A stretch of 64,000 nt of DNA. Source: Malacoraja senta. Its lineage: Eukaryota. Position 1 is the stretch's first letter; the number at the start of each line of letters is the position of its first letter. The stretch lies in contig CM075989.1 in NCBI GenBank assembly GCA_038087875.1, positions 6,014,001 to 6,078,000 of the forward strand. The letters are read 5' to 3'. The notes beneath the pieces were generated by a model. That model was not told the origin of the DNA. It did not search any database and saw only the letters and a list, made by a program, of their open reading frames with translations. The position numbers were made by a program, and so were the translations under genes. Of the stretch, positions 25,522 to 58,676 are shown piece after piece.

Positions 25522-25955
25522 GTAAGTAAGTAAGTAAGTAAGTAAATATTATTTATATAGCACATTTAAATCAACTCGCGTTGAAACCAAAGTGCTTTAC
25601 ATGAAAGAAATAATAAAAAAAATAATAACGTTTCCGTACATCCATAGAAAAATTTAAAAATCAGAAAAATGACACAACACATTATAGAATTCAACAAGAA
25701 CGTCCCCCCCCCCCCCCCCCACAACAGAATCAAAATTTTCCACTGTGGGGATAGGCAACAAAAAGTTAAGTCCTCTTCCTCTGTGAAACACCCAAGGTCG
25801 GGGCCTATTTGTGGCCTCCACAGCCAGTACGATGTTTTCAGGCCCTCTTTGCCGGAAAGCTGGAACTCCGGCGTCGGGTGAATACTACTCAGCGGCTTCG
25901 AAAATGTCTGGAGCGGCCGCTCCCTCCCCGGAGACCGCGGCACCCGTAGTCCTCA
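25522..25955 (-). mobile_element. GC-rich retroposon fragment with L2-type tail
   Basis: Core at 25719-25756 matches the reverse complement of 32140-32182; tail TGTAAAGCACTTTGG...AAATGTGCTATATAAAT plus (TTAC)n. Confidence 0.65.
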
Positions 25956-25974
25956 GGCCGCGTTAGTGTAAACT

Positions 25975-26550
25975 TTTAAAATCTTTTCCCTGTACGGAGG
26001 ACCCGACCTTTCTCTGTCGGGTCTCCGTTGTCGTTGGGGCTTAGCACCGTGGAGAGGCCTCCAACCGGAACGACCTGGGGCTCCAGTCGCGGAGGCTGCG
26101 ACCCGACCCCGGAGATTCGGAGGCTCCAGCCGCAGGTCTGGTGGACGGTGACATCGGGAGCCCGCGGGTCCCTGGTGGGTGACCGCTTTTTGGAGCTCCC
26201 GCAACGGCGACTTCTCCCGCCCGAGCTGCGGGGTTTAGGATTACCTGGAGCGGGGCCTTGCATCGCCCGGCGTGGCTTTAATGTCCGCGGGACTTATTTA
26301 CCATCGTCCGCCGGGGGCTTTGACTTTGACATCGGGAGGAGAATGGGGAGTGCAGGGGAGAGATGCAGTAAGACTTTGCCTTCCATCACAGCGAGGAGGA
26401 GATTCGCTGTGATGGATGTTTGTGTAAATTGTGTTGTGTCTTGGTTCTTCTACTTGTTTGTATGACTGCAGAAACCAAATTTCGTTTGAACCTCAATGAG
26501 GTTCAAATGACAACAAATAAATTGTATAATTGTATCATATTGTATCATTG
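25975..26550 (+). mobile_element. GC-rich non-autonomous retroposon, 5'-truncated
   Basis: Shared core hairpin at 26382-26416; tail hairpin TTTGAACCTCAATGAGGTTCAAA, then AATAAA and TTGTAT repeats. Confidence 0.7.
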
Positions 26551-26718
26551 TATCATGGCTGATCGTCCCCAATCAATAACCCGTGCCTGCCTTCTCCCCA
26601 TATCCCTTGTTTCCACTAGCCCCTAGAGCTCTATCTAACTCTCTCTTATTAGAAATAGAAATAGTTTTCACACCTTACCCTTCCATGTCTCTTGTTTCCC
26701 TCTCTCCTGACTCTCAGT

Positions 26719-26746
26719 CTGAAGAAGGGTCTCGACCCGAAACGTG
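26719..26746 (+). ncRNA. Hammerhead motif with mutated cleavage triplet (GUG)
   Basis: CTGAAGAAGGGTCTCGACCCGAAACGTG within a PLE terminus at about 26665-26815. Confidence 0.55.
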
Positions 26747-27424
26747 ACCCATTCCTTCACTCCAGAGATGCTGCCTCACCCGCTGAGTTACTCCATCTTT
26801 TTGTGTCTATCTTTAGTGTAGATAGAATTGATGGGAGGGAGGCTGGTTTGTGTACTGGACTGGACTGAGCCCACAACTCTACAATTTCTTGCGGCTCTAG
26901 GTGGGGAAGCTGCTAAAACCAAGCTGCAATGCATCCTGAAAGGACCTTTGCACAGCATCCTCTAAAAAATTGATCCAAGGTCACCTTTGAAGTATCGCCA
27001 TGGAGCGCCACACACCTGGGAGTTGCTGGTTTAGCTTTGCCGATAGGTTATCACTGGAAACATCGGTCTACATTATCAATGGTTCAACCTGCTAATTCGA
27101 CCCATCGTCCCCTTAAAATTATTTTTATGAAATCATAGATATTAGTCATTGAGGAATCCTTTTCTGGCTTCTTGCAATAGGATGTTGACATCAGGTTATT
27201 AGTAAGATTGAATGAGAACCAGGCAGCTCTGGCTTTGCACAGAGGAACGTATTAAAACAACACAACACAACAAAAATCATTACATGCCTGAGGGGAGAAG
27301 GGAATTAAATCTCTCTGGTCCAAACACCTCAAAGCAATGCCACTGTGCTGCATTTAAAGCAGCATCTATATTTTATGCTTACCGTTGAAGCTCTGTTTAA
27401 ATTTGTTTTTTATAAATCCGTAAG

Positions 27425-27755
27425 TTACAGCAGCAGGATTAGGATATTCGGCCCATCAAGTCTACTCTGCCATTTAATCATGGCTGATCTATCATTCCCT
27501 CTTCTCCTGTCTTCTCCCCATATCTCCTGACACCTGTACTAATCAAGAATCTGTCATTCTTAAAAATATCCATTGACGGCCTCCACAGCCTTCTGTGGCA
27601 ATGAATTCCACACATTCACCACCCTCTGACTAAAGAAATTCCTAAAGGTACATCCTTTTATTCTGAGGCTGTGGCTTCTGGTCCTAGACTCTCCCACTAG
27701 TGGTAACATCCTCTCCACATCCACTCTATCCAGGCCTTTCATTATTCAGTAAGCT
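27425..27755 (-). mobile_element. CR1 3' fragment
   Basis: KGLDRVDVERM...FFSQRVVNVWNSLP. Confidence 0.88.
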
Positions 27756-28059
27756 TCAGAGAATTCTCAACATACTGTGGAAGCAAGAGCTAACAGGGCC
27801 AAGAAAGTTTCTCTCTATGGCGATAGCACTGATAGCTATGATACATTGCAGCTTGTTATTCTAACCGCTATGTTTACCCACTGCGCTGCATGGCGTGATA
27901 AGCAGCATCAGTCTATTGAAGCTTGTTCCATAAGTCAAAATCCTTAGCCTAAGTGAATTCATCTTCACCAATGGAGCACTCTGTTTATGGGCAAGGTGAT
28001 CAAAAACAATATGTTTGCAGACTATAGAGTAGGGAAGCATTCAAATGGTCTTTCAATTC

Positions 28060-28845
28060 GAGTCATAGAGTCATACAGCATGGAAACGAGCCCTTTGGCC
28101 CAACTTGCCCAAGCTGACCAAGGTGTCCAATTATCAAACAATCTGTGTGTTTAGTCACTGGTGAATGGTGAGTGCACAAAGACTTTTCCCCAGAGGAGGG
28201 AAATCAAGAACCAGAGGACATAGGCTTAAGGTGAGAGGGGAAAGATTTAATAGGACCACGAGGGAAATCCTTTCACAAAGAGGGTGGTGAGGATATGGAC
28301 TGGGCCGGCAGATGAGCTTGTCCAGCTATGGCACTACAATAGCATGTAAAAGACACTTGAACAGGTACATAGATACAAAAGGTTAGAGAGGATATGGGCC
28401 AAATGTGGGCAAATGGGACCAGCTTGGATAGAGAATCTTGGTCGGCATGGACAAGTTGGGCCTGTTTCCGTGCTGCATAACTCTACGACTGATACAATAT
28501 CTAAACTGATGGAGCAGTAACCTTCCATTACTGAAAACCTAATTCTCATGGTTACGTATCTCTCTTTGCTTTTTCTCCCCCTTCCATTCAGAAGTAATCC
28601 AGAGACCTGACATCCAGGTGATCTCATAGAGTCTTAGAGTCATACCGCATGGAAACGGGCCCTTTGGCCCAACTTGACCCACGCTGACTAACGTGCCCAA
28701 TCTACACTAGTCCCACCTGCCTGCGCTTCGCCCATATCCCTCTAAACCTACCATATCCATGCACCTGTCTAAACATTTCTTAAACGTTGCCATAGTATCT
28801 GCCCCAACTACCTCCTCCGGCAGCTCGTTCCATACACCCACCCGA
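28060..28845. mobile_element. Cluster of CR1 3' fragments, both strands
   Basis: Colinear with the other CR1 tails. Confidence 0.78.
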
Positions 28846-29238
28846 GATCTACTCATGCGGCTGAGTTCAGGAATGTTTGGATGGATACGTCAAGGTCCTG
28901 CCATCCATCTCTATCTTGTATTCAAGAGTACATGTCCCCTTTGGGTTCTGTCCTGAGAACTGTTCATAACCCAAACAGTTTGCAAGTCGGGAATGTGTGC
29001 GCAAACTAAGTTCCCACTCTGCGCTACCTCGATCTAAATTTAGCATCTATCTGGAGCTAAATCTGTTAATATCAGCAATTTTATTAAGAATGGCAAAATG
29101 TCAATCAGCTGGAGCCGACAAATAGCCGACAAATCGATCCCACAATGCTCATTCATATGTACGGGCTGTAAATAAGCTGGGGTTGACTTGTAAGAGATTT
29201 TAAATGAATCATGTTAAGTGTAGCTTCTTCATGTAATC

Positions 29239-29546
29239 TAGTTTAGTATAGAGATACAGCACGGAAACAGGACCATCGGCCCACCGAGTCCGCACCGGCC
29301 AGCGATCCCCGCACATTAACACTATCCTGCACACACTAGGGCAATTTACATTTACACCAAGCCACTTAACTTACAAACCTGTACGTCTTACAAATCTAGT
29401 GTGGGAGGAAACTGAAGATCTCGGAGAAAACTCACGCAGGTCACGGGGAGAAGGAACACAATCTGTACAGACAGCCGCTGTAGTATCAAACCCGGGTCTG
29501 TGGCGCTGTAAGGCAGTAGTTCTACCACTGCGCCACCGTGCTGCCC
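29239..29546 (-). mobile_element. V-SINE
   Basis: Match to the other copies. Confidence 0.9.
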
Positions 29547-29693
29547 ACAGTCAAATCTTTTTAATACAGACCCTTTTGCTTTAAAGCACAATGATATTAC
29601 AGCCCAGATAGACACATAATCACACATTAGCTGGAGTAACTCAGCATTTTGTGTGTATCCTTATATAACCAGGATCTGTAGTTCCTTCCTACA

Positions 29694-29755
<62 letters not shown>

Positions 29756-29782
29756 GTCTTATATACAGATATACACTATATT

Positions 29783-29985
29783 GGAAGGATTGCAGATGCT
29801 GGTTTAAATCAAAGATAGACGCAACATGCTGGAGTGACTCAGTGGGACAGGCAGGATCTCTGGAGAGAAGGAATGGGTGAAGTTTCAGGTCAAGACCCTT
29901 CTTCAGACTGATCCATCACCCATTCCTCCTCTCAAGAGATGCTGCCTGTCCCGTTGAGTTACTCCAGCATTTTGTGTCTCTCTTC
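29783..29985. mobile_element. Inverted pair of PLE termini
   Basis: Same family arms in opposite orientation. Confidence 0.75.
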
Positions 29986-29999
29986 TTGTTATATATATA

Positions 30000-31293
30000 C
30001 TAGACTAAGTAGGACCCGTTGGGACCCAGCATCACATGGGAGGGCTGGTCCCCAACACAATATTCCACCTCTCCACCAATTCCAATATTGGTGGCCAGTG
30101 GGGGAGGGGGGGCTTTCTGGAGCGCTAGTATGGGGTGGGCTGAAGGGCTGAAGGACTGGTTTCCAGAGGGCTAGTATGGACATTGTGGGCCGAATGGATT
30201 CTTGGGCTGGCAGCTCAGTCACTCAAGCCTGTTGTGCTGGCAGCTCACTCACTCATGGCTGGTGGGCTGCCAGTTGACTCACGGCTATTCCTTGAAATTC
30301 CATTTCAAGCAGTGTGCAAGGCCATCAAATTCACGTGCAGTTTCTTACCATTTCAAGCAGGTTGCAAGTCCACTAAAGATAGCGAGTCGTGACATCTCCC
30401 TCCTCCATCTTGCAGAGACTGAGCCACGCCCACACTTCTGGGTTTTATAGTCCCACCCCCACCCCCACCCCCCTCCCACCAGAAGGAGCATGGCCTTCAT
30501 GGCGTGATTGACAGGAGAGAAAAACTCAACATTTTTTAAACACTAATAACTCTTTTATTTTTCATCGATGGGAAAAGTCCTCGGCACCTGATGAGCGGAG
30601 AGGCTCTGAGTAAAATGGCCAAAAATCACAGCCGTACGTGGTAGCGTTCTTTCTAAAATCAATATAAAGCGCAAACAGGAAGTGGTCAAGATTAGACTTT
30701 TAATTATATAAGGGGCAAGGCAACTTTAATTAGGCAAGGCAACTTTAATTAGGCAAGGCATCTTTAATTAGGCAAGGCATCTTTAATTAGGCAAGGCAAC
30801 TTTAATTAGGCAACACAGCTTTAGCATTTCCGAACCAAAGTCTACACAGCTTTAGCATTTCCAAACCAAAGGCAACACAGCTTTAGCATTTCCAAACTAT
30901 ATTATTAAAACCACATTAAGGGCACTGACAGATCAGTAAAACCACTCACAGTTTAGTAGACATGTGTTCAGTGTTATTCACAGCTCAGACTGAGAGACGT
31001 GACCCTCTCACTCCCCCATCTTGCAGAGACTGACTGAGGCACTCAACACTTCCGGGTTTTATAGTCCCTCCGGAAGGGGCGTGGCCTTCAGGAGCGAGAA
31101 TCTCAACATTTTTTAAACACTAATAACTCTTTTATTTTTCATCGATGGGAAAAATCCCCTTGTCCTGCGCAGCGGAGGGAGGATCTGAGTAATATGGCCA
31201 AACATCATAGCCGTAAGTGACAGCGTTTTTTTTTCTAAAATCAATATACAGAACAACAGGAAGTGGTCAAGATCAGACTTTTAGTAATATAGA
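30000..31293 (-). mobile_element. Non-autonomous Helitron
   Basis: Minus strand A|TCTATATTACTAAAAG...imperfect GC hairpin (30011-30027)...CTAG|T; no TSD; sits in AT repeat. Confidence 0.8.
30712..30897. repeat. Minisatellites inside the Helitron
   Basis: About 5 x 19-bp AGGCAAGGCAACTTTAATT, then about 3 x ACACAGCTTTAGCATTTCC-containing units. Confidence 0.9.
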
Positions 31294-31448
31294 TACAATC
31301 TATATATATATATATATATGTGTGTAATTGTGAGTATGTGCACACACATTGAACTTTTTTTCCCTCTTGTTTATTATATTGTTTACAGTGTACTATGTTT
31401 ACATATTCTGTTGTGCTGCTGCAAGTAAGAATGTCGTTGTCCAATCTG

Positions 31449-32314
31449 TTGTATCAACAGGGGGCGCTACACTGAGGGCAGCCTCTGCCTGCAGCCTGTT
31501 CGTTTTTTTCCATCTTTTTTTTAATTTTTAATTAGTTTAATGTTTGTTTAGGGGGAAACTTTAACTTTTCTATGTGGGGGAGGGGGGTAGGGTAAGGGGG
31601 AAACTGTTTCCCAGTCGCTTCCTGGCGGGGGCGCGACTATTTCTCCAAGTCGCGTCCTCGCCCCCCTCCTTGCGGCCTACCACCTGGATCGGAGCGGCCT
31701 TTCCTACCGGGGACCGGGAACTGGACCAGAGCTGCAACAGCGGCGGCGCGGCGCTGAATTCACCGTGGAGCGGGCGATGCCGACCTAGATCGCCGTTTGG
31801 AGCTCGTGGAGCTGCGGTTTGGGAGAGCTTCCAGCGCGGCCGGCGCTGAATAACATCACGGAGTCCTGGGGCCCTTTGCCAAGGGCCGCCAGCGCTGCAC
31901 CTCTGCATCTTTGCCCGGCGCGGCCTGCGGACTTTGGGAGCCGTGGACTCCGGTAGGAGGGGGCCGACTCTGATGTCCAGGCCGCTGAGGAGGTCACCCA
32001 GCCCTGACATCGGACTTACTTCACCCCGGCGAGCGGGCCTGAACATCGGACCGCCCGTAGCGGCGACTGCGGTGGGCTCGGGGAGGCCCCGACCACCGGT
32101 GAACAGCGGGGAACATTAGAGGAAGATGACTGACTTTGGTGCCTTCCCTCACAGTGGGAAACTTTGATTCTGCTGTGTGGGGATGTTTTATGTTGAACTC
32201 TATCGTGTGTGGTGTTCTTATTTTTGATTGTATGGCTGGATGGCAATCACACATTTCACTGTGCCAACTGGCACATGTGACAAATAAAATAATTTCAATT
32301 TCAATTTCAATTTC
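31449..32314 (+). mobile_element. GC-rich non-autonomous retroposon, apparently full length, Rex1-type tail
   Basis: CAATCTG on both flanks, (ATTTCA)n tail, TTTCACTGTGCC...GTGACAAATAAA end; no recognisable ORF or Pol III boxes. Confidence 0.75.
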
Positions 32315-33136
32315 AATCTGGGACACATGACAATAAAACTCTCTTGACTCTATTGACTCATATTACAGCCTAGCTCTGGCAGTGCTGATAGATTGAGTTC
32401 TGTGACAGAAGGCTCATCAAGAATTCTGCGTGTGTTTTCCTATAAACCCAATCTGGATGTGATGGTGTGAAGACTCAGTCCAAGGCTCGTTCCATATTTC
32501 GGCAGCATTCCCGTGCCATCCTGGCTTTCATCTGAAAGTTTGTCTCTGTGAGAGACTGACGTGTTGAATAATTCGAGGAGGGCATGTTGTTTGCCTATCT
32601 TAAGGTCATACGGTCATTAGTGATAAGGACAGAATTAGGCCATTCGATCCATCAAGTCTACTCCACCATTCAATCATGGCTGATCTATCTCTCCCTCCTA
32701 ACCCCATTCTCCTGCCTTCACCCCATAACCCATGACATCTTCTGTATGCCTGTCTGACAGTGTAACGGACTTGGCCCCAGGAGTATTTCAGAAGGAACAT
32801 TAGTTACGATTTGCTTTTATTTTGTATTGTCACTGAGTTATTTTATGAGTTCCTCTTCTCTCCTCCGTAATCCCAAAATATCTTTCCTGAGATTTGGAAT
32901 AGAGCTCTCTGGGGTTTTATCTAAAGTTAGTCGCAGCTGATATTCAACTTCCTGTGTTTTCAATTCCAAACCCCTTGAGGTTATAGCCACAATTCCATTT
33001 AAAATGTTGGATTATTTCTTGAACCTGTGTGTAACTCTGATAGTGATGTCAATTTATATGTGACCTTTCAATACAGCAACACACCACACGTTGCCTCTCC
33101 CAGGAGCAAATCCCAACAAAGTCAAACCGTGAATAA

Positions 33137-34043
33137 ACGCAAAAAGCTGGAGTAAAGGGCCTGTCCCACTTGGACGACCTAATCCACGAGTTCAGAAGAC
33201 CCTAGACGAGTTGAAAAAAATGTCAAGGTCGTGTTGACTCGCTGAAGTAAAAGACATCCTACGACCTCCTACGACTATGTCTACAACATCCTACGACTAT
33301 GTCTACGATCTCCTACGACCCCCCTCGACCTCAGTCTTCCACACCGAAAACTAACTTCGACTAGCTGCGAGTGGAAAATTATCACATGGTAAAATTATGT
33401 CACGTTTGCATTTTTTTCTAGGGCCGGTTACTGACCTACGACCTAACTACGACTACCTACGAGTAAAAAGTATCAATTTTTTCCATGCCAACCTTTTTTT
33501 TACTCGCTGACATTTTTGATCAGGCTGGAAAATTCGCCGCGACCTACTTGAGGCCACGTGTACGCGGAGATCACTCACGAGCATGAGGAAGAGTTACGAA
33601 GACCTCCTACGACCTCGTGGCGACCATGCTGCGAGTATGAGTCAAGGGCAAACTCGGCAGAGGTCGCCAATTAGGTCGTGAAAGTGGGACAGGGGCTTAA
33701 CTCAGCGGGTCAGGCAGCATCTCTGGAGATAAGGAATAGGTGGCATTTCAGGCCGAGACCCTTCTTCAGACTGAGAGCCAGGGGAAAGGGAAACGAGAGA
33801 TATAGACTGTGATGTAGCGAGATATAGAACAAATGAATGAAAGATATGCAAAAAATTACTGATGATAAAGGAAACAGGCCATTGTTAGCTGTGGGCTAGG
33901 TGAAAACCAGTTACAGACAATGAGACTCACCAGGATGACATTGAAACTAGCACAACGACTAGGGTGGGGGAGGGATGAAGAGAGAGGGGATGCAACGGTC
34001 ACTTGAAGTTAGAGAAATTAATACACATACCTCTGGCTTGTAA
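33137..34043 (-). mobile_element. PLE 3' region (ORF end, UTR, hammerhead terminus) interrupted by a MITE
   Basis: Minus strand reads LQARGMCINFSNFK*, then UTR, CTGAAGAAGGGTCTCGGCCTGAAATGCC and the common terminus. Confidence 0.75.
33156..33697. mobile_element. MITE, TAA TSD
   Basis: TAA-AGGGCCTGTCCCACTT...AAGTGGGACAGGGGCT-TAA; internal CTACGA repeats. Confidence 0.9.
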
Positions 34044-34194
34044 AACCGTGAGCCAGATCACCAGAAATTCAGCCTAAAATATTGGTGCGATGCTTTGTTT
34101 AAAACAATGCCACAAAGATTCAGAGTCCTGGTGAGATGCAGCACAGATACAAGCCCTTTGTCCCACTAAGTCCATGGTGACCCTTACATTAAGG

Positions 34195-34480
34195 AAAGAC
34201 ACGCAAGATGCTGGTGTAACGCAGCAAATCAGGCAGCATCTCTGGAGAACATGGATGGGTGACATTTCTGGGTCGGGACCCTTCTTCGGACAGATTGCAG
34301 GGATGGGGAAAACTAAAGCTAGAAGAGAGGAGGGGCAGGACTTCAGTCTAAATAACTTAGGGTCTCGACCCAAAACGTCACCTATTCCTTTTCTCCAGAA
34401 ATGCTGCCTGACCCGCTGGGTTACTCCAGCATTTTGTGTCTCTCTTCAGTGTTAACCAGCATCTGCAGTTCCCTCCTACC
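34195..34480. mobile_element. Inverted pair of PLE termini with spacer
   Basis: Same family arms in opposite orientation. Confidence 0.75.
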
Positions 34481-34764
34481 CAGACCTACAAACCCGCAAG
34501 TGGAGCATCCAGCATCCAGTCACAGGGAGAATGTGCAGACTACACGTAGTTCCGGAGGTGAGGATGGAACCAGCTGGAGCTGCATGACTGCAATATTACC
34601 TGCTGCACTACTGAGCCACCTGCATCTGCTGCACCAAGGCTCCACTGACTACCCATGCCTTAAGAATTTCCACCATCACATCACTGACTAACATGAATGC
34701 ATCAGCAGCACATTGAAATAACACACCTTTCTGTCATGAACTTAGCATCATTCTTAGCTCCCTG

Positions 34765-35057
34765 TTTCGTTTAGTTTAGTTTAGAGATACAGCGCAGATG
34801 CAGGCTGCACCGACCAGCAACCCCTGTTACACTGGTGCACACTACACAATGGGGCCAATTTACAATTTTTACTGCAACCAATCAACCTACAAACCTGTAC
34901 ATCTTCTGAGTGTGGGAGGAAACCGGTGCACCTGGAAAAAACCCACACGGTCACAGGGAGGATGTACAAACTACATGCAGACAGCAGCCATAGTCAGGAC
35001 CAAACCCGTGTCTCTGGTGCTGCAAGGCACTAACTCTACCTCTGTGTTACCGTGCCT
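34765..35057 (-). mobile_element. V-SINE (diverged)
   Basis: Match to the other copies. Confidence 0.8.
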
Positions 35058-35644
35058 GCTTTTGATTAATTCAATGAAATGGTACAAGTGCACACATTTC
35101 CATGGCTTCTTGGGAACATCAATGAAAGTCTGAAGAAGGGTCTCGACCCGAAACGACACCCATTCCATCAATCCAGAGATGCTGCCTGTTCCGCTGAGTT
35201 ACTCCAGCATTTTGTGTCTACCTTCGGTGTAAACTAGCAGTCTGCAGTTCACTTCCTACAAAATAAAATTCCAGAAATGGGCAAGGAATACCTCTAGTGT
35301 CTGCCTGGGCCAACTCAATATTCCCAGGTGCGAGATTTAGCAGATATTTTAATAAATTCGTTGCAAAGAAACAGTGTCAAAAAAACCAAAATCAATTTGA
35401 AGTTCCCTTGACACTACTATTCTCATCTTCAAAGTGCTTTCAGATTTTAGCTCTGGGGAAAGATATACTTCAATCATAAAGGAAGAGTCTACACATGCAG
35501 GTTGCTAAACCAAGTGATTGCCTGTGTACAGAGAGGGCAACAAAACACACGCTTCCCCTCGATTACCTTAAGCACAAACGCACCACCTTTGAACACTTTG
35601 TCTCATCTTCTTTCTACTGAAGAATTGCCAATAATCAATTATAA

Positions 35645-36830
<1,186 letters not shown>

Positions 36831-38769: not shown

Positions 38770-39004
38770 CACCTTATACACTAGTACAATCCTACTCACT
38801 AGAATCAATTTACAATTTTACCAAAGCCAACTAACCTCCAAAGAGTCTTGCAGAAGAGTGTGGAAGGAAACCGGAGCACCTGGGGAAAACCCACGCCGTC
38901 ACGGGGACAATGCACAAACTCCGTACAGACAGCACCTGTAGTCGGGATCGAACCCGGTTGTCTGGCGCTGCAATGCAGCAACTCTACCGCTGCGCCACCG
39001 TGAC
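38770..39004 (-). mobile_element. V-SINE
   Basis: A and B boxes intact; tail missing. Confidence 0.85.
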
Positions 39005-41004: not shown

Positions 41005-41027
41005 GCCTAACCATATTCTCCAGAGAT

Positions 41028-41830
41028 CATAATCATAATAATCTTAATCATACTTTATTAGCCAAGTATGTTTTGTAACATACGAGGAATTTGATTTGCC
41101 ACACAGTCAAACTAATAAAAAGCAACAAGACACACAAAATACATTTTAACATAAACATCCACCACAGTGACCCCTCCACATTCCTCACTGTGATGGAAGG
41201 TGAAAAAAAAGTTAAAATTTCTTCCCTTCTTTGTTCTCCCGCGGGCGGAGGCCTCGAGCCTTCTGTTGATGCGACGATCTTGGCTCCCGTAGCCGGTGGT
41301 CTGGCCCTCCGCGTCACGGCGATCAAACTCCTGCATCGGGGGGGGGGGTGGAATCTCAGCTCCACCGTTGACAGATCCTTCCATCGACGGGACGATCCTG
41401 GCTCCCGTAGCCGGGCGAACTGACCCTAGGTCAGGGCTGGTCGAAACCTTCTGTGTCGTTTGGAGCTTCCTGCCCGAGACTGCGAGCTCCTCGATGGTGA
41501 AATCCGCAGGCCGTGGTTGGAGCGTCGATCCCAGGCAAGGTGATCGGCTCCGATGGCAAGTCCATGGCCCCGTGGTGGGGCTCAAAGTCAGTTCCGAGCA
41601 AGGCCGCCAGCTCCATGATGTTAGGCCGCAGAGCGACCGGAGTTACGATCCGGAAAACAATCGCTTCTCCGGCAAGGTAAGAGATCGAAAAAAAGATTCC
41701 ATTGACCCCCCCCCCGCCCACCCCCAACATAAAACAAACTAGAGAACATTAACACACTAGAAATAAAAGAAAGACGAAAAGACAGACAGACTGTTGGCGA
41801 GGCTGCCATCGTGCGGCGCCACCCGGTGGA
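41028..41830 (-). mobile_element. GC-rich non-autonomous retroposon, apparently full length
   Basis: Splits a PLE terminus; tail AAATTCCTCGTATGTT...CATACTTGGCTAATAAA plus short tandem repeat; homologous to 57953-58676. Confidence 0.75.
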
Positions 41831-43235: not shown

Positions 43236-43328
<93 letters not shown>

Positions 43329-46210: not shown

Positions 46211-46754
46211 ATGGAAGAAATGTTAATTATTTTGGGGGGATCGATGGTGGTGGTGGGGGGGGGGGGGATGTGAGGGGCTTTGCTACACAGCTGTGTTAGG
46301 CTGTTCTAAATTGAAACCATGATATCACCCAATGGAAATCTACTAAGAACCGCAGATGCGGGAAATCTGAAACAAAAACTGAAAATGCTTGAAACACTCA
46401 GATGGTCAGGCAGTGTCTGGGGAGAGAGAAGCAGAGTAAATGTTTCGGTTGGAAGCCACTTTCTTTATAGTATCAGTGTGCCTCAGCAATTGGACACTCA
46501 GGTTGTAGTTAAAGAATTCTGCATACTCGTCCGCGTACAGTGAATGAAGCATAAAGTATGGGCTGATATTTGTCTACCACCAGTGCCGTGCCTCAGTGGT
46601 AGTGTTGCCGACCTCCATATGGCAGGAAGCCAAACACTCACTGGGACAACTCTGGGGGCAATGAAAGGATCCTACAACATACATGAAGAAGATCACGCAT
46701 GGTTTTCTAACGTGTCCTGACCAATAAATATCCTTCTGATAGCATTAATGTCTA

Positions 46755-48023
<1,269 letters not shown>

Positions 48024-48816: not shown

Positions 48817-48829
48817 AAGAAAGTAGTAA

Positions 48830-49048
48830 GAATGAACTGCAGATGCTGGTAAAATCGAAGATAGACACAAAATGCTGGAGTAACTCAGCGGGTCAAGCAG
48901 CATCTCTGGAGAGAAGGAATGGGCGACGTTTCGGATCGAGACCCTTCTTCAGACTGAAGAAGGGTCTCGACCCAAAACGTCACATATTCCTTCCCTCCAG
49001 AGATGCTGCTTGACCCGCTGAGTTACTCCAGAATTTTGTGCCTACCTA
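48830..49048. mobile_element. Palindromic pair of PLE termini
   Basis: Arms of about 95 bp symmetric about CTTCTTCAG-A-CTGAAGAAG (centre 48953). Confidence 0.85.
48925..48952 (-). ncRNA. Minimal hammerhead ribozyme motif
   Basis: Reverse complement is CTGAAGAAGGGTCTCGATCCGAAACGTC; the plus-strand partner at 48954-48981 has GAAA changed to AAAA. Confidence 0.7.
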
Positions 49049-49596
49049 AACTAAAAGAAAGACTGGTCAGCATGGATGTGATGGGCCGAATGGCCTCTTT
49101 CCATGCTGCATAACAGCATGTAATTAAGAAAAACACTCCCACACTAAACCCAAAATAAATATACAAATCTGGAAGTTGAGGCTCATGTTTGATTGTGAAA
49201 TGTAATCCCTCTGTAGCTTTGAAAAAAACAAAGCCTTTTCTCCACAGGATAATTATGGAAGAAGCATTGGTATTTATAGACTGTTCAAGCAAGCCAAAGT
49301 TATAACTTGGGGCTGTGTGATTACAGTTAAGCAGAATTACTGTATGTTATTAGTCGTAAATAGATGTCTGAAGGAAACACAATTTGTCAACAGTGTGGTT
49401 AATGCAATTAGCTTGCTGCCTGGAACTACTGGCTAATAAATGGTTTGCACTGAATACAGAAGCATTGGACTAAATTCATCGTTACATTAACAATAATAAA
49501 TTGGATAGCATCACCATGTCAGCGCACTGCATCAATGGTATTTGGAAAATCCGATTCCAATCACTCCGTGAAAACCAAACAAAAACAGCACTGGTT

Positions 49597-49988
49597 TCAA
49601 GGAGCTCCGGAGCGTTGGGCCGCTGCTCCAACACCACGGAGCTGTGGTTTGGAGAGCATCCAGCGCGGCTGGCGCTGAACAACATCGCTGAGTCCTGAGG
49701 CCCTTTGCCGAAGGCCGCCAACGTTGAATCTCTGCCCAGTGCGGCCTGCGGATTTCGGGAGGCCGCAGCCGCTGGCCAAGTGTCCAAGCCGCTGAGGACG
49801 TCCTCCAGTCCTGACGTCGGACATCCAACACCCCGGCGAGCGGGCCTGAACATCGGGCCGCCCGTAGCGGCGACAGCGGGGGGGTTCGGGAGCCCCCCCC
49901 CCCCGACCACGGGAGGACAACAGAGGAGGATGACTGAATTTTTGGAGCCTTCCCTCATAGTGGGAAACTTTGATCTCCCTGTGTGGGG
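49597..49988 (+). mobile_element. Internal fragment of the GC-rich retroposon
   Basis: Colinear with about 31800-32180. Confidence 0.75.
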
Positions 49989-50382
49989 GTAACTCAGCGG
50001 AACAGGCAGTATCTCTGGAGAGAAGGGAATGGGTGTCCTCCAGAGATGCTGCCTGTCCCGCTGAGTTACTCCAGCATTTCGTGTCGATCTTCGGTATAAA
50101 ACCAGCCTCTGCAGTTCCCTCCCACACCAGGCTCACAGGGATATGGGCCAAGCACGGGCAAATGGTGTAGGAGGGAACTACGGTTGTGAGTTTACATCAG
50201 AGTTAGACACAAAATGGTGGAGTAACTCAGCGGGTCAGGCTGCATCTCGGGAGAAACATCACCTATTCCTTCTCTCCAGAGATGCTGCCTAACCCGCTGA
50301 GTTACTCCAGTATTTTGTGCCTATCTGCTTTCAAATGGGACTAGCTTAGATGGAGCATCTTGGTCTGTATGGACGGGTGTTA

Positions 50383-50622
50383 AAGGGCCCTGTCCCACTT
50401 TCACGACCTAATTCACGACCTCTGCCGAGTTTGCCCTTGACTCGTACTCGCAGCATGGTCGTCACGACGACGTAGGAGGTCGTAGGTAGGTCGTAGGTAG
50501 GCCGTGATGCTAGTCGTAGGTACTCGTGGCATCAAGTAGGTCGGGGCATTTTTCTAGCCTGATGAAAAATGTCCACGAGTAAAAACGGTCGTGAATTAGG
50601 TCGTGAAAGTGGGGCAGGCCCT
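50383..50622. mobile_element. Short MITE, inverted sibling of 44476-44712, TTA TSD
   Basis: Near reverse complement of 44476-44712. Confidence 0.9.
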
Positions 50623-50954
50623 TTAGGCCGGAGGGCCTGTTTTCATTCTGTCTGACTCAATGACTCTCTAATCCAAATCTAAAATTGTCAGTGGAAATAT
50701 TAGGGGTCAAACGCTTGACTATTTCAGAAGATATTCCTGGTATTTTAACTGAGTTAATATCTCTCTTAAAATAAGGCTCCCACCTGTCGGTATCCATCTG
50801 CAGAGGTCATTTCTGAATCACTACAATTTTTTTAATTAAATGTTTTAAATTGCTCTTATTGTAAAAAAAAAAGTGGACAGAGGCTTTTAATAATCCGAAG
50901 AGAGGAATAACTCTGAAATTCAGAAAGAGGTGGAATGGGAAATGCGGGACTTAA

Positions 50955-51370
50955 TTTAGTTCAGTTTAGTTTGGTTTATTGTCACGTGTACCGAGGTACA
51001 GTGAAAAGCTTTTGGTGCATGCTGTCCAGTCAGCAGAAAGACAATACATGATTACAATCGAGCCATTTACAGTGTATAGATACATGATAAGGGAATAATG
51101 TTTAGTGCAAGGTAAAGCCAACAAAGTCCGATCAAGGATAGTCCGAGGGTCACCAAAGAGGTAGATAGTAGTTGAGGACTGCTCTCTGGTTGTGGTAGGA
51201 TGATTCAGTTGCCTGATAACAGCTGGGAAGAAGCTGTCCCTGAATCTGGAGGTGTGCGTTTTCACACTTCTGTACTTTTTGCCTGATGGGAGAGGGGAGA
51301 AGAGGGAGTGGTCAGGGTGCGACTCGTCCTTGATTATGCTGGTGGTCTTGCCGAAGCAGTGGGAAATGTG
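50955..51370 (-). mobile_element. Rex1/Babar LINE 3' end
   Basis: IIKDESHPDHSLFSPLPSGKKYRSVKTHTSRFRDSFFPAVIRQLN; tail TTTCACTGTACCTCGGTACACGTGACAATAAA. Confidence 0.85.
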
Positions 51371-52260
51371 TACAACAGAAGGGTGAGGAGTAGGGTAACT
51401 GGGAAATAGTGGGAGAAATGGGAGCACACCGGGATGAGGAGGGGGTGGAACAGGAAAGAGGGAGGGCCCTGCCCCATCTCTCCTCCAGCTTTCTCCCCCC
51501 CTACTTCAATCAGCCTGAAATGCCGTCTATCCACGTTCTCCAAAGATGCTGCCTGACCCGCTGAGTTACTCCAGCACATTGTGACTTTTTTTTGTAACCC
51601 AGCATCTGCAGTTCCTTGTATCCACTCCATTAAAGCAACGTAATTACATTTGAAGAGCAGCAAGGAAATTAGGTTCTCAATTAGGCCATTGGGATCAGGT
51701 GGCAAAAGGCCCCCGAGGCCTTCCTGCTGAGAGAGCTGCAGGTGTCTAGGAATAAGCCTGATCTCTTCTGAGAATTATTAAGCATTGCCTCCAAGCAATT
51801 GGAAGGGCCAGAGGTTTAAAGTTTCACTGCAGAGCTGTAAGAGGAAGCAGAGGCGCACAATGGATTAGCTCTTTGTAAAGTGTCTGGATTGAATGGCAAG
51901 CAGTGATAAGGATGCAATTTGTAGTTGGACATAATGATTTTATCTGCAGCGCTGAACTGGGGCTGAACAAAGGAGCTGAGGGAATTTGCTTTGAACAGGA
52001 CTGCCTGGGTGGAAGGCTTGGCTGGATTCTTTTCAAGATCCTGTGAAAGAGTATATTTTTAACAGTGAAGGACTCCAGCCCACAGAGTGAATAGAGCGAG
52101 CTCCTCTTACCTGTAAATTTAACACTTAACAGGCAGGTACACACAGCTGGAAACCCCGCAGATAGATACAGAAAGCTGGAGTAACTCAGCGGGTCAGGCG
52201 GCATCTCTGGACAGAAGGAATGGGTGACGTTTCGAGGACTAGAGGACACAGGTTTATGCT

Positions 52261-52430
52261 TCTTCTTCTTCCTCGTGTCCGGCCATCTTCTATATCACGT
52301 CTTTCCGGTCGGTCAGTGACGGTTGACGGTCGGTGGTTGCAGAATTGGCTACTTCAGTCAGTCACTGTGGTACAGTTTCTGTCGTCAGCATTGCCCGGGA
52401 TGCGCCACGTGGAGGCTTCTGCTTGCATCC
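52261..52430 (-). mobile_element. 170-bp retroposon with (GAA)n tail, possibly Vingi/Ingi-derived
   Basis: CAGGTTTA(T/C)GCT duplicated at 52249-52260 and 52431-52442; 3' end GGACACGAGGAAGAAGAAG. Confidence 0.6.
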
Positions 52431-52710
52431 CAGGTTTACGCTGAGAGGGTCAAAATTTAAAGGGGATGTGCGGGGCATGTTTTTTTGACAAAGACAGTGG
52501 TGGGGTGCCTGGAACGCCCTGCAAGGGTGGTAGTGGAGGCAGAAGCGATAATGGCTTTCAGGAGGCCTTTAGATAGGCACATGTATATGTCGGGAATGGA
52601 GGGATACGGATCACATGCAGGCAGAGGAGCTTAGTTTATCTTGCCATCCATCATGTCCGGCACAGACATTGTGGGCCGAATGGCCTCTTCCTGTGCTGCA
52701 CTCTTCCATA

Positions 52711-52935
52711 GATAGACATAAAGTGCTGGAGTAACTCAGCAGGTCAGGCAGCATCTCTCGAGAAAACGAATAGGTGACATTTTGCGTCGGGACCCTTCTT
52801 CAGACTCTGTAGAAGGGTTCTGACCCGAAACGTCACCCATCCTTTTTCTCCAGAGATGCTGCCTGTCCTGCTGCTGTACTCCAGCATTTTGTGTCTATCT
52901 TCGGTATAAACCAGCATCGGCAGTTGCTTCATACA
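52711..52935. mobile_element. Inverted pair of PLE termini
   Basis: Arms meet at CTTCTTCAGACTCTGTAGAAGGG. Confidence 0.8.
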
Positions 52936-53137
52936 CACTGTACTCTTCCATGTTCTACAGAATATATCTTGCAGAACCATTAGCAAACAACTCATCCAAA
53001 GATCCTCGCCGCATCGTGATGTGCATTGATCCCTTTTCTCTTCTGACGTTGATCTACATTAGAACGCAGAACGGCAGCAACTCACCTTCTTGTCATGTTC
53101 CAATCTCTCCGCACCTTTGCCTCTCCTTATCTCTTTC

Positions 53138-53464
53138 GGCCAGCTCACGGTGGCGCAGCGGTAGAGTTGCCGCCTTACAGCGAATGCAGCGCCCGAGACC
53201 CGGGTTCGATCCCGACTACGGGTGCTGTCGGTACCTTCCCCCCGTGACCCTGCGTGGGGTTTTCTCCGAGATCTTCGGTTTCCTCCCACACTCCAAAGAC
53301 GCACAGGTTTGTAGGTTAATTGGCTTGGTAAATGTAAAAATTGTCCGGGCTAGTGGGTGTAGGATATTGTTAATGTGCGGGGATCGTTGGTCGGCGCGGG
53401 CCCAGTGGGCCTAAAGGCCTGTTTCCGTGCTGTATCTCTAAACTAAACTAAATTAAATTAAACT
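53138..53464 (+). mobile_element. V-SINE
   Basis: A box TGGCGCAGCGG, B box GGTTCGATCCC, tail. Confidence 0.9.
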
Positions 53465-53748
53465 GTAATGCCATCCAACATGAAACCCCCCAGGATAACT
53501 GCGCTCCTCTAACTCCAGCCTAGAACAAAGGGGGACCCAGTATGGAAGGGGCCACCGAGTACTAAGGGGGTCCCGGCGGGAGGAGGCTCCAAGAACTGAA
53601 GGGGAGCCTGCGTGGTGACGAAGAAGGGATGAGTACTTTTAGTTACTGGTCTTTAGGGCGATTCTTTTGTGTACTTCGTATGCAAAGACAAAGACTTTCA
53701 CTCAACCTCGGTAGAAGTGACAATAATGTTTCATCATCATTAACCATC

Positions 53749-54067
53749 TTTAGTTTAATGTAGTTTGAAGACACAGCTCAGAAACAGGCCCTTGGGCCCG
53801 CCGAGTCCACGCCGGCCAGCGATCCCTGCACACTAACACTATCCCATACACACACACATGAGGGACAATTTTACATTTACACTGAAGCCAATAAGCCGAC
53901 AGACCTGTATGTCTTTGGAGTGTAAGAGGAAACCAAAGATCTCGGAGAAAAGCCGCGCAGGTCACGGGGAGAACGTACAAACTCCGTTCTTGACAAGCAC
54001 CCGTAGTCAGGATCGAACCCGGGGTCTCTGGTTCCGTGAGGCGGCAACTCTACTGCTGCGTCACCGA
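53749..54067 (-). mobile_element. V-SINE
   Basis: Match to the other copies; inverted relative to 53138-53464. Confidence 0.88.
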
Positions 54068-54917
54068 TCTTATATCCCCAATATGCATCACTCAACTATA
54101 GAGGGTGTGAGGCCTCCCAGTACCAAGACCCTGATGGTTTGGAATTTCCCCACTAATCCTGTCCCGCTGCCTCTCCTCCTTCATTGGTTGGTGAGCATCA
54201 GCCTCTCCAACAAAGCTTCTGTCTAACTTGTCTCAATGTGCCCCTGCATGGCTCAGAGTTATAGCTCTTCTGCTCCGTGGCCACAAATCAAAATCTGCCC
54301 GCAGGTGTCTCATAAATTTCACCCGAGTGGCCTTCTGAGAACAGGGAGAAATAGTGGGAGTTGCTGGGTCCAAGGTCCAACAGATGCATGAGTCAGGCTG
54401 TTCCAGGCTGCATTCCAGAGCAGAGTCTCTCAGGTGACAGAAATCTCTAGAGGGGAAGAAATCTGTGGGAAACCTGGCCGTTGGGAATCCGCACAGATTT
54501 TTTTTTATGGACTGAGAGAGGTTAAACAGTTCCCGAGGAGCTCTGGTGTGAAGTAACTGGGGCCCACAGTCATGCAGAACTAATGGGCTGCAAATGTGCA
54601 ACAGCTGAAGATGTTTGGAATGAACCTTCCCTCATGTTTACTGGAGGATGCTATTCAGCTTTAGGCCTCCTATTAATTGGCATTTGGAGGAGGCTTAAAT
54701 CAAGGTCTGGGGACATTTGAGAGACCACCACCTGTTGGCTCCTCTGCATGCCGACTGGGAAATACAATGTTGGCCCTTCATCCTCGTTGAGTCCAAGCTC
54801 ACCCCAGACAATATGTTCGCCACTGTGGTGGTCCAACATGGCAGCCCACCACCATCTCCTCAAGGGCAATGAGTTTAGTTTCGAGATACACCTCAATATC
54901 TCTCGGTGTGAGATTTA

Positions 54918-55735
54918 AGGAACTGCAGACGCAGATTTATACAAGAAAAAAGAAAACAAAGTGCTGGAGTAACTCAGCAGGTCAGGCGGAATCCCTGGAG
55001 AACAAGGATAGGTGATGTTTCGGGTCGGGACCCTTCTTCAGGTCCCGAACTAAAACATCACCTGTCCACGTTCTCCAGAGATGCTGCCTGACCCGCTGAG
55101 TTACTCCAGCATTTTGCGTCTCTTTTTTTCTAACCAGCATCTGCAGTTCCTTGTTTCCACTATTTATGACAAGCCACCTTCAGTAATCTTGGTGACAACA
55201 GAAAGCTATAGTCTTCTAGGGATAGACACAAAATGCTGGAGTAACTCAGCAGGTCAGGCAGCATCCCTGGAGAAAAGGAATAGGTCACTTTTCGGGTCGG
55301 AACCCTTCTTCAGATAGGAAGGCCCGGGTCTGACCCGAAACGTCACCCATTCCTTTTCTCCAGAGAGAGGAGGACGGTGGAATCGATGGTCAAAGTCCGC
55401 GGGGAGTAGAGTCCGGGTCAGCGGGCGAGGCGTGGGAGGTCCCGGTGGGCGGATGGTCGGTGGGGCGGCGCGGTTCGGTGGGCCCGGAGAGGCGGACGAG
55501 GTGAGTCAGCCACGGTGCGGTGGCGATGTTCGATGGGCCGGGTGCGGCTTCTGAAGAAGGGTTTAGGCCCGAAACGTTGCCTATTTCCTTCGCTCCATAG
55601 ATGCTGCCGCACCCGCTGAGTTTCTCCAGCACTTTTGTCTACCTTTTCTCCAGAGATGCTGCCTGACCTGCAGAGTTACTCCAGCACTTTGGGCTTATCT
55701 TCGGTATAAACCGGCTTCTGCAGTTCCTTCCTACA
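54918..55735. mobile_element. Cluster of PLE terminal palindromes with a nested GC-rich fragment (about 55368-55550)
   Basis: Two inverted pairs; the second is split by an insert. Confidence 0.7.
55551..55578 (+). ncRNA. Minimal hammerhead ribozyme motif, second subfamily
   Basis: CTGAAGAAGGGTTTAGGCCCGAAACGTT; helix II GGGT/GCCC, palindrome AACGTT, GUU triplet. Confidence 0.7.
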
Positions 55736-56304
55736 CAGTCTTCTAATGAAGTCGGATTGAAATATAAAAAGATTAAAATGTGGCACTTAAACTGCTGAAC
55801 ATTATCTTCCTGCGATCCTAAATTATATTAGCATTAATGTGAGCATTATGTTGCCAAACCACAATATCAGCTCATGATTGTATCTGTACTTTTTTTCCTT
55901 TGCAGATAAAACTCAAAGAGGCTGTGAATGGATACCAACTACTTCTCAGCTCTTTATCTCCAATGCATGAATTACTCTGTAGTGGCATTAGTCAAAGTGT
56001 GGATAATGGATACACATTTCACATCTCTTTGTTTCATGGCCTTTTATCATGTACCTTTGCCAAAAACATAGCTCAGATATAGTGCTGCTTTCCATCCAGA
56101 AGCAAGAAACTAGCACAAAAAAAAGAAGGGTCTCAACCCGAAACGTCGCCTATTTCCTTCGCTCCATAGATGCTGCCTCACCCGCTGAGTTTCTCCAGCA
56201 TTTTTGTCTACCTTCGATTTTCCAGCATCTGCAGTTCCATCTTAAACAAACAAACAAAAAAAATCACCTGTGTGTTTGGCAGGGCTGGTCTTCAGCAGTG
56301 AATC

Positions 56305-57305
56305 GAGAACTAGAGGACATAGGTTTAAGGTGAAGGGGGAAAGAGAATTTTAAGGAATCTGAGGGGGTAACTATTTCATGCATAGGGTGGTGGGTGTATG
56401 AAATGAGCTGCAGGAAGAGGGAGTTGAGGCAGGGACTATCGCAACATTTACGAAGCAATTAGATAGGTACATTGATAGGACATGTTTAAAGGAATATGGG
56501 CCATATGCAGGCAAGTGGGCCTAGTGTAAGGTAATAAGACCATGTGATAGGAGAATTAGGCCATTCGACCCTTCAAGTCTACTCCGCCATTCAATCGTGG
56601 CTGATCTCTCTCTCCTATTCTCCTGACTTCTCCCCTGACACCCGTACTAATCAAGAATCTATCTATCTCTGCCTTAAAAATATCCATTGACTTGGCCTCC
56701 ACGGTCTTCTGTGGCAAAGAATTCCACAGATTCACCACCCTCTGACAAAAGAAACTCCTCCTCATCTCCCTCTTAAAGGAACATCCTTTAATTCTGAGGC
56801 TATGACCTCTGGTCCTAGACTCTCCCACTAGTGGAAACATCCTCTCCACATCAATAGACAATAGGTGCAGGAGTTGGCCATTCAGCCGTTCGAGCCAGCA
56901 CCGCCATTCAATGTGATCATGGCTGATCATCCCTCTATCTCCAGACTCCGCTATCATTAACAGCCCTATCTAGTTCTCTCTTGAAAGTATCCAGAGAACC
57001 GGCCTCCACCACCCTCTGAGGCAGAGAATTCCACAGACTCACAATTCTCGGTGTGAAAAATTGTTTCCTCATCTCCGTTCTAAATGGCTTACTCCTTATT
57101 CTTAAACTGTGGCCCCTGGTTCTGGACTCCCCCCAACATCGGGAACATCCTCTCCACCCAATCTATTTCACTATTCGGTAAGTTTCAATGAGGTCCCCCC
57201 CTCATCCATCTAAACTCCAGCGAGTACAGGCCCAGTGCCGTCAAACATAGAAGGGATAAGTTGGTCGCCGTGGGCAAGTTGGGCCGAAGGGCCTGTTTCC
57301 ATACT
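56305..57305. mobile_element. Nested CR1 3' fragments
   Basis: RTRGHSLRIKG...QRVVNLWNSLP on minus; an outer plus-strand copy. Confidence 0.85.
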
Positions 57306-57952
57306 GGAAAATTCTGTGATTCAATGGCTATGCAATGTACCAGTACGTCTAAAAAGTTAATTGTCCCTATTTCATTTTTCAGCCAGGGCGACATGTATTT
57401 GATTATGAATCGTGCGTATCAGCTCTATTTTTATCTTCAAAAAATAACACTGACCCTAAGCTTACTGATGCCTGGTTCAAAGGAATAGTCTTTCGACCTG
57501 AAATATTAAGTCTTTGTCTTTTCGTCCAGGCTGCAGAATGTGCGGAGATTCAACAGCATTTTCTGCTTAATTTCCACGATACTCAGCCTTGCTATGTTGA
57601 ATTTTGTTGAATTTATTCCTAACAATTTCATCCATCTGCCATTCAATGGTTAATATTCAAGTTGATGTTAATCGGTTGAGGACTTGATCTCATGAGACAT
57701 GCAGTAGACATTTCTATGAGTGGGTCCATCTCACGATCTCAGTGCAATGTTTTTGGAATAGGCAAGGAGTATTAATCCCAGGATAAGTGGTTGGGCATAT
57801 AGGTATGGATAAGTAGTTGTAGAAATTGCATACAAAATGTGTAGGAAGGAACTTCAGATGCTGGTTTACACAGAAGATTTATTTTGTTCTTTCATTCATT
57901 TGTTCTTTGTGCCTTTCCATACCTCTAGTTTCCCTCTCCCCTGAGTCTGAAA

Positions 57953-58676
57953 AATCACAATCACAATCACACAATCACAATGATAATTAGCCAAGTATGT
58001 TTTGCAACATACGAGGAATTTCATTTGCCAAGTCAGTCATACGAATAAAAAGCAACAGAACACACAAAATACATTTTAACATAAACATCCACCACAGTGA
58101 CTCCTCCACATTGCTCACCGTAATGGAAGGCGAAAAAAAGTTCATTCTCTTCCCTTAGCTCACCTGTGGCCTGGGGCCTCGAGCCCTCCGTTGACAGAAC
58201 TATCTTGACTCCGGCGTTTTGGGCCCTCCCCATCGGGGCGATCCAGCCCCTGCATCGGGGGGGGGGGGTGTCAGCTCCCCCGCGCCGGTGATCAAACCCC
58301 GCGTCGAGGCTGGTCGAGCCTCTGCATTCGTCGGAGCTCCCGACTAGCCTCTCCCGAGACTGCGAGCTCTTGAGGTTAAGGCCGCAGGCAAGGGATCAGC
58401 TCCAATGTTCAGCAGCCAGCAGTGGGGCCCAAGGTCAGTCCGAGGAGGCCTCCAGCTCCATCAATGGTAGGCCGCAGAGCGACCGGAGAATACAATCTGA
58501 AAATCGCATCTCCGGCAAGGTAAGAAACTGAGAAAAAAAATCCCCCCGACCCACCCCCCCCCCCTCCTCCCACATAAAACAAACCGGAGAACATTTACAC
58601 AAACTTACACAAACGCACAATTTATTTTTTTTAAGACGAAAAAACAAACGTTGGCGGGACTGCCAACCCTGGTGGT
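57953..58676 (-). mobile_element. GC-rich non-autonomous retroposon
   Basis: Colinear with 41028-41830; (TGATTG)n tail; splits a hammerhead motif. Confidence 0.75.

Follow-up and report, generated by a model that had tools for sequence, protein, structure and literature searches.

The window analysed here, 64,000 nucleotides of Malacoraja senta DNA (assembly GCA_038087875.1, contig CM075989.1, positions 6,014,001 to 6,078,000 of the forward strand), is repeat-rich animal DNA with a long interspersed nuclear element (LINE) of CR1 type, short interspersed nuclear elements (SINEs) of tRNA type and LINE fragments of Rex1 type. Six GC-rich copies in this window, designated A to F, raise the question of what kind of element carries one shared core and ends in unrelated 3' tails. 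The initial annotation had read them as a modular non-autonomous element that has switched its partner LINEs. Our data support this proposal, as the core is shared across tail types and is incongruent with the distribution of tail d. We consider it likely that the copies represent a superfamily of non-autonomous, non-coding retroposons of the non-long terminal repeat class whose partner LINEs have been switched.

All six copies were found where they had been annotated, with slightly shifted boundaries. A family profile search detected no seventh copy in the window, of which the six make up 5.9%. The copies, the parts of copy C considered below and the LINE fragment that bears on its tail are as follows:

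25526..25962, minus strand: copy A, 5'-truncated, with body and core of C type, tail d at about 25548-25610 and a (TTAC)n end
~25980-26548, plus strand: copy B, 5'-truncated directly after the position of the G-run, core hairpin at 26382-26416, tail c at about 26472-26525
31449..32313, plus strand: copy C, full length, with head, T-rich tract, G-run, GC-rich body, core hairpin, Rex1-type tail a and (AATTTC)n
~41027..41830, minus strand: copy D, a full-length copy ending in tail b; the arms of its hairpin occupy 41158-41170 and 41185-41197, and the body has an internal duplication of about 87 nt
~49597..49989, plus strand: copy E, internal fragment of C type, cut at both ends, without tail
57953..58676, minus strand: copy F, full length, tail b, short head deletion relative to D
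32144..32183, plus strand: core hairpin of C, delimited by folding against shuffles
32252..32291, plus strand: tail a of C, a Rex1/Babar-type 3' stem-loop, delimited by its match to Rex1-type 3' ends
31449..31530, plus strand: shared 5' head of C, a short GC-rich start followed by a T-rich tract, delimited by head alignments
50965..51373, minus strand: 3' fragment of a Rex1/Babar-type LINE with the end of an open reading frame (ORF), 3' untranslated region (UTR) and a tail of type a; a candidate partner lineage of C, outside the family

Full-length copies measure 0.72-0.87 kb. The bodies are indeed GC-rich, having 62-69% GC and an observed/expected CpG ratio of 0.70-0.95 as compared to 47% and 0.53 for the window. 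E is 77% identical to C and is cut in the G-run following the core; F and D share about 70% identity over 700 nt. Significant internal repeats occur in C and D only, and a regular variable number tandem repeat (VNTR) was not seen in the copies.

The shared core proved real as a similarity, less so as a fixed word. Similarity was detected in all 15 pairs of copies (z 3.0-46); none of 200 shuffles reached the observed value in 14 of them, and four of 200 did so for B with A. However, a strict version of the core pattern is exact in B, C and D only (0 expected by chance), with variants in A, E and F. Core similarity also holds significantly on alignment between tail types, so that the earlier concern that it might dissolve there was not borne out. 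Beyond what had been noticed previously, the core corresponds to a hairpin that folds in all six copies (z -1.7 to -5.2), with 0, 0, 2, 7, 11 and 16 of 200 shuffles folding equally well across the six. The values are z -3.67 for C (0 of 200 shuffles) and z -5.24 for B. The consensus stem comprises 11 pairs, and 90.9% of its cells are paired versus 42-61% in slid controls. Two pairs change on both sides; one of these reads A-U in three of the copies, C-G in the remaining three. Positions 26392 and 26406 of copy B are partners in the stem, and in the mapped contigs of all four public runs they switch from C-G to U-A (C>T and G>A, respectively) at matching rates (0.63/0.64, 0.99/0.94, 0.99/0.96 and 0.64/0.58, given as ratios derived from contigs). 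In B, C and D, the end of the stem lies 60-70 nt upstream of the tail.

The tails, which measure 40-60 nt, are unrelated between types in all nine between-type pairs (z -1.8 to 1.5), whereas those of D and F, both of type b, clearly match (z 19.5). To place them among LINEs, the peptide encoded at 51125-51373 on the minus strand of the Rex1-type fragment is informative, as it corresponds to the C-terminus of fish LINE proteins. Among the 14 long peptide hits scanned, ten contain PF09004 and seven of these ten also RVT_1; we take these proteins to be Rex1/Babar. An alignment of 11 Rex1-type proteins fetched 80 metagenome loci and three loci from a genome collection. The complete fetched set holds 84 loci, 83 of them as Rex1 relatives and presumably fish host DNA, and eight Rex1 loci have ORFs of about 1000 codons. 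From this set, 16 chosen 3' ends, 14 of Rex1 type and two others, were compared with the tails.

Tail a resembles the Rex1 tail of the window, as had been annotated: it matches the Rex1-type end at 50965-51015 (z 7.3). Among the fetched ends it matches L012 (z 5.5) and L007 (z 5.0). The match of tail b is the LINE L016, whose ORF has 1011 codons (z 10.3 for D and 9.1 for F); tail c is matched by the ends of L012 (z 7.8) and of L015 (z 4.8). Tail d matches exclusively the two ends that are not of Rex1 type, with z 8.1 for L069 and z 3.8 for L075, both SINE-like ends without ORF, while the 14 Rex1 ends score at most 1.6. We presume that tail d is of L2 type. An L2 ORF locus carrying tail d was found neither in viral contigs (0 matches) nor among the 84 loci, where only the ORF-less L069 bears it. 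Thus, of the four different LINE tails originally claimed, the four unrelated types stand, but a, b and c all match 3' ends of Rex1/Babar-type LINEs from different lineages and only d falls outside. Over the last ~220 residues, L012, L015 and L007 share 48-49% identity with L016, indicating deep lineages as the donors of tail b on the one hand and of tails a/c on the other. These values are pairwise, with two of 12 rows ignored, since the frameshifted L014 and L083 distort the tree.

Exchange of tails is apparent from copies A and C. The core of A (tail d) is 75% identical to that of C (tail a) as compared to 52-62% with the b- and c-tailed copies, and the A+C grouping has a support of 99/99 in an unrooted tree. 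That is, one body type bears two unrelated tails. A further case is provided by B and D/F, whose cores are 66-67% identical, yet the sequence nearer to tail b is a LINE of another sample and not tail c.

Contigs of four public runs, from four organisms and four studies and including X1, possibly the source sample, were mapped to positions 25470-26560, comprising A and B. Between 7,119 and 14,199 contigs per run were placed, A and B both being covered, indicating that this sequence is highly repeated in all four organisms. Summed depth reached 1e4-1.9e6 per bin, compared with mostly 12-57 for single listed contigs; these sums are not copy numbers. In the four runs, depth peaks in the bin of the hairpin, as expected if further subfamilies share the hairpin. 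Contigs with 10-18 differences from A join tail d to the post-core region or to the core in X1 and X6. Other loci therefore hold the same core-to-tail-d join, which thus represents a family rather than a one-off chimera. Past the 5' cut of A, a GC-rich word as found in the bodies of C and D follows within the 30 nt of loose end, in 22, 62 and 47 contigs of three runs, respectively. In run X9 (organism F), 11 contigs show tail c also behind another upstream sequence (loose end before 26480), hinting at a further subfamily or a partner LINE.

Do the copies represent whole units? In head alignments, C-D (z 14.0) and D-F (z 11.6) were not reached by any of 200 shuffles each. The head is followed in C, D and F by a T-rich tract, a G-run and then the 5' body. 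This 5' body is common to B, C, D and F, with 0 of 200 shuffles reaching the observed value in all six pairs (z 4.8-8.5 for B versus C, D and F), and the whole body of A is homologous to the full-length copies. When the elements are taken out, the two sides of C, of D and of F close up to a single continuous repeat in each case, which also occurs elsewhere in the window; in the case of C, this host is a Rex1-type 3' end that continues across the insertion. Target duplications are clear in two of the four copies tested, namely the 7-bp CAATCTG of C at 31442-31448 and 32314-32320, and a 9-bp duplication of A at 25517-25525 and 25963-25971. F has a doubtful 5-bp T duplication in a continuous host, and D, whose host repeat is continuous, lacks a duplication of at least 5 bp. 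Terminal inverted repeats, as a DNA transposon or a miniature inverted-repeat transposable element (MITE) would have, were not found in C, D and F. The traits that are present, a LINE-shared 3' tail, short terminal repeats, variable target duplication and 5' truncation, are those of retroposons. C, D and F share one start point in intact hosts and carry two unrelated tails, arguing that they are whole units and not cut-short LINE 3' UTRs.

The surroundings of A and B are more intricate. In the nested cluster at 25437-26650, A lies within a minus-strand Rex1-type fragment that borders on B at its truncated 5' end. B lacks a matching target duplication, and its 3' end adjoins a CR1-type 3' piece that is itself cut. 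An arrangement in which A is nested in the 5' part of B was considered and rejected, as the flank of A at about 25437-25513 matches a minus-strand ORF fragment of Rex1 type.

An alternative view holds that the copies are bipartite internal-deletion derivatives, each subfamily having arisen independently from the 5' end and 3' UTR of its own Rex1 lineage, so that head and core would be UTR sequence of LINEs, with tail d as the only swap. The layout of the head does resemble Rex1 5' ends, which likewise begin GC-rich and continue with a T-rich tract, and the 3' bodies of C-type and D-type copies align poorly with each other. The head is also collinear, if weakly, with one of eight Rex1 5' ends, that of L008 (in 24 comparisons, no shuffle out of 200 reached the value for C, z 3.4, and three did so for D), and a profile of 19 Rex1 N-termini ranked the D head second and the C head seventh of 4646 scored frames. 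However, a reversed control profile still placed C fourth, and F came 215th with the true profile, meaning that the signal is largely compositional. A head that is the vestige of a Rex1 N-terminus was accordingly dropped as unsupported beyond composition; the heads of C and D also fold no better than shuffles. The core is missing from eight Rex1-type 3' fragments of the window including the one with the tail of type a (best z 2.8), and a profile search found it in none of the 84 fetched loci, including the eight with full-length ORFs. As far as sampled, then, the core is not Rex1 UTR. The ~500-nt GC-rich body likewise matches no fetched LINE. Derivation of the whole sequence from the two ends of one LINE fails on these grounds and because one body bears two tails, and we regard this explanation as unlikely.

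Still less probable is a reading of the copies, at the least of A and B, as what 5' truncation has left of autonomous LINE subfamilies with a long GC-rich 3' UTR. A and B are indeed 5'-truncated, and the starts of their subfamilies are unseen, with loose contig ends of 30 nt. Yet the 5' part of B and the whole body of A are homologous to the full-length copies, and three insertions with two unrelated tails and one start point would be hard to explain by cut-short UTRs. Moreover, the Rex1 C-terminal peptide had no match within or beside the 5' end of any full-length copy, and the distance from the ORF to the end signal is mostly 40-480 nt among the fetched Rex1 loci, none of which contains the core. 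The caveat attached to the initial annotation, that the copies might simply be long 3' UTRs of known LINEs, is therefore not supported, given the absence of the core from the window fragments and the fetched loci.

A SINE superfamily that uses RNA polymerase III (Pol III) for its transcription and whose small-RNA head has decayed past recognition would fit the conserved central domain with swapped tails, which is the textbook pattern of such superfamilies. We nevertheless judge it very improbable. Pol III boxes had been reported absent, and the A box is indeed missing from all six copies; in this respect only the weak B-box-like word at +303 of D qualifies the claim. The same scan detected an A or B box in all three control SINE heads. 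Runs of T terminate Pol III transcription, and C, D and F all have T4-T8 runs in their first 140 nt (T4+ runs from +55 in the head of C). Absence of the A box together with these early T-runs argues that the family is not transcribed by Pol III. An internal Pol III promoter without early terminator, which would characterize a SINE, is thus not what the copies contain. Neither ARAGORN nor Rfam detected a small-RNA head, the Rfam blank being weak because a control SINE head was missed as well. The SINEBase definition (PMC3531059) asks for a head with at least 60% identity to a tRNA, 5S or 7SL RNA over 60 nt and sets a limit of <700 bp, which the family exceeds. Transcription is probably carried out by RNA polymerase II (Pol II) from a promoter in the head and the CpG-rich body.

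An element encoding ORF1 only (HAL1 or Ag-Sponge type), with its small protein frameshifted in the copies, is scarcely credible: stop-free frames of 120-216 codons do overlap the bodies, but long open frames are expected in DNA of 65% GC, none of eight body ORFs gave any Pfam hit, the D frame had no homologue among 81 candidates, and indels and substitutions ignore codon phase, only 2/8, 4/22 and 4/10 indels between related copies being divisible by three. The annotated lack of a recognisable ORF was thereby confirmed, and neither a reverse transcriptase nor an endonuclease ORF turned up in the copies by ORF listing or by Pfam, homologue, peptide and indel checks.

Several observations count against a partner-switching family with a functional hairpin. 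With regard to the tails, a and c both match L012 best, and the fetched set separates them poorly. The matches of b, c and d lie in presumed fish host DNA of other samples, in LINEs or SINE-like repeats, and for b, c or d a full-length partner LINE of the source genome is unseen. As the tree is unrooted, it leaves the direction of the a/d switch unfixed. As to the hairpin, D, E and F only modestly beat their shuffles (7, 11 and 16 of 200), and covariation comes from six related copies, the observed values being reached by 9/500 and 7/500 shuffles. The positions 26392 and 26406 lie in two CpG sites, and matching rates do not by themselves show linkage on single contigs. With regard to the 5' ends, the head comparison of C and F alone is not significant (20 of 200 shuffles), the subfamily starts of A and B are represented by loose ends of 30 nt only so that their 5' ends are unseen, and the weak Rfam blank blunts the argument from the small-RNA head.

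Taking these points into account, we still favour a family of non-coding retroposons with exchanged partner LINEs, for which the following mechanism can be envisaged. Pol II would transcribe the element, using a promoter located within the head and the CpG-rich body. The donor LINE would supply in trans the reverse transcriptase that recognises the stem-loop of the tail, and insertion would proceed by target-primed reverse transcription. This scheme, the capture of new tails included, is derived from the established stringent LINE model (PMC3747384 and PMC4824008). New tails may be gained just 3' of the core via template switching or recombination, with switches among Rex1/Babar lineages (a, b and c) and at least one to or from an outside LINE (d, presumably L2-type). 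The hairpin may act in the RNA, and we favour a role in docking or folding the RNA for the reverse transcriptase in use or in marking the switch point. It is plausible that the promoter end of the head derives from Rex1, in which case a bipartite ancestor would later have gained body, core and new tails. A more far-reaching version, which we put forward only tentatively and hold to be doubtful, is that of an undescribed, high-copy Pol II superfamily of cartilaginous fish, neither SINE nor deleted LINE, with a head and CpG-rich body of its own and a selected hairpin that serves as a partner-independent adaptor for capturing tails of several deep Rex1/Babar lineages and of an L2-type LINE.

The core pattern had no match in viral and metagenome contigs, collections that may lack this animal group. 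A description of the family was not found in the open literature searched, Repbase and Dfam being outside that search, and two core words were absent from the supplements of PMC5786205 and PMC7245038, from which control words were absent too. It is likely that so abundant a repeat sits in Repbase or Dfam under some label. As an abundant CpG-rich repeat, it is of relevance for repeat annotation and methylation studies of these genomes.

Several other repeats were observed in and around the window. An abundant short repeat contains a hammerhead-ribozyme-like word, with 19 matches at up to three mismatches (0 expected), for instance at 26719-26744, 35130-35155 and 4533-4585. The word occurs twice in back-to-back pairs and stays below the Rfam gathering thresholds. 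D and F are inserted into copies of this repeat, which presumably resembles Penelope-type ends or retrozymes. MITE-like elements with inverted arms of 38-42 nt lie at 50383-50624, 23400-23959 and 24042-24516, and in the one at 23400-23959 the interior is GC-rich and holds a tandem repeat of 41 bp. Just upstream of C, a unit of about 300 bp is locally duplicated (30384-30710 and 30994-31291), with 19-bp and 31-bp tandem arrays in between. The CR1-type LINE at 6918-10288 (minus strand) is long and frameshifted, comprising an ORF1 frame of the GDSL-esterase type, two endonuclease frames and a reverse transcriptase frame of 460 codons. The SINE and CR1 ends of the window resemble what we take to be HE1/HER1. 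Very long compound dinucleotide microsatellites extend over 12031-15028, 20025-21259, 35961-36641 and 46748-47986, the first of which holds an assembly gap of N.

Full-length LINEs of Rex1 type (L005, L006, L008, L010-L013 and L016; P0153-P0186) contain a single ORF beginning at the 5' end or close to it. Its first residues are often Met-Ala-Ala, after which comes a hydrophobic stretch resembling a signal; this stretch may function as protein or may only reflect a T-rich promoter region. Rex1-type LINE sequence is also present in three bacterial genome records (L082, L083 and L084), where it most likely represents contamination by fish host DNA.

How does the family compare with known systems? 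Rex1/Babar LINEs have 3' ends that match tails a, b and c and a similar head layout, GC-rich and then T-rich. Unlike them, the family lacks an ORF and possesses a core and body that are missing from the fetched Rex1 loci. A second analogy is offered by SVA and LAVA of hominoids, non-autonomous elements that have a GC- and CpG-rich body with internal duplications and no small-RNA promoter, all of which the family shares. SVA uses L1 via a poly(A) end, whereas the family ends in structured LINE-specific tails plus short repeats and has no regular VNTR.

Bipartite ORF-less LINEs such as RIME, Bov-A, RTE-N, Vingi-N and the R2 SIDEs are, according to sections of PMC5786205, likewise non-coding, with a defined 5' end, a LINE 3' tail and presumed Pol II transcription. 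A 3' end from a parent-type LINE is also present in the family (tails a, b and c). The sources of such elements listed there are RTE, Ingi, Vingi and R2 only. The family differs in that its tails are of Rex1 type and, as we presume, L2 type, in that no fetched LINE matches its large body or its core and in that one body carries several tails. If our reading is correct, Rex1/Babar would join the few LINE clades, four in the list of PMC5786205, that drive ORF-less Pol II passengers. RTE-mobilised SINEs of birds, as cited in parts of PMC7245038 and PMC5786205, similarly combine a GC-rich 5' part of unknown origin with a LINE-derived end; unlike the family, they carry bipartite RTE sequence and rely on one partner clade.

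In the combination of a central block with exchanged LINE tails, the family is comparable to the SINE superfamilies CORE, V, Deu, Meta and Ceph, represented in cartilaginous fish by HE1, SacSINE1 and CmiSINE. The six copies do not match the tRNA-type SINE copies of the window, which we take to be HE1/V. The family departs from SINE superfamilies in that no tRNA, 5S or 7SL head was detected (subject to the weak Rfam blank), in its Pol III-stopping T-runs and in its greater length. Its partners are mainly Rex1/Babar, also unlike those of SINE superfamilies; Table 1 of PMC3747384, a SINE/LINE pair table from 2013, contains one Rex1-tailed SINE, from a sea anemone. SINE superfamilies survive by changing partners, as described in passages of PMC4824008, PMC11481361 and PMC5499810. 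For conservation of SINE central domains, a section of PMC5499810 gives three models: interaction with the LINE, a recombination hot spot and benefit to the host. A short domain with a predicted, covarying structure at a near-fixed distance from swappable tails and without a Pol III head would make the first two of these models testable. If the more far-reaching version holds, a conserved central domain with tail exchange, as known from SINE superfamilies, could also arise without a Pol III head, and the domain would gain a structure amenable to testing.

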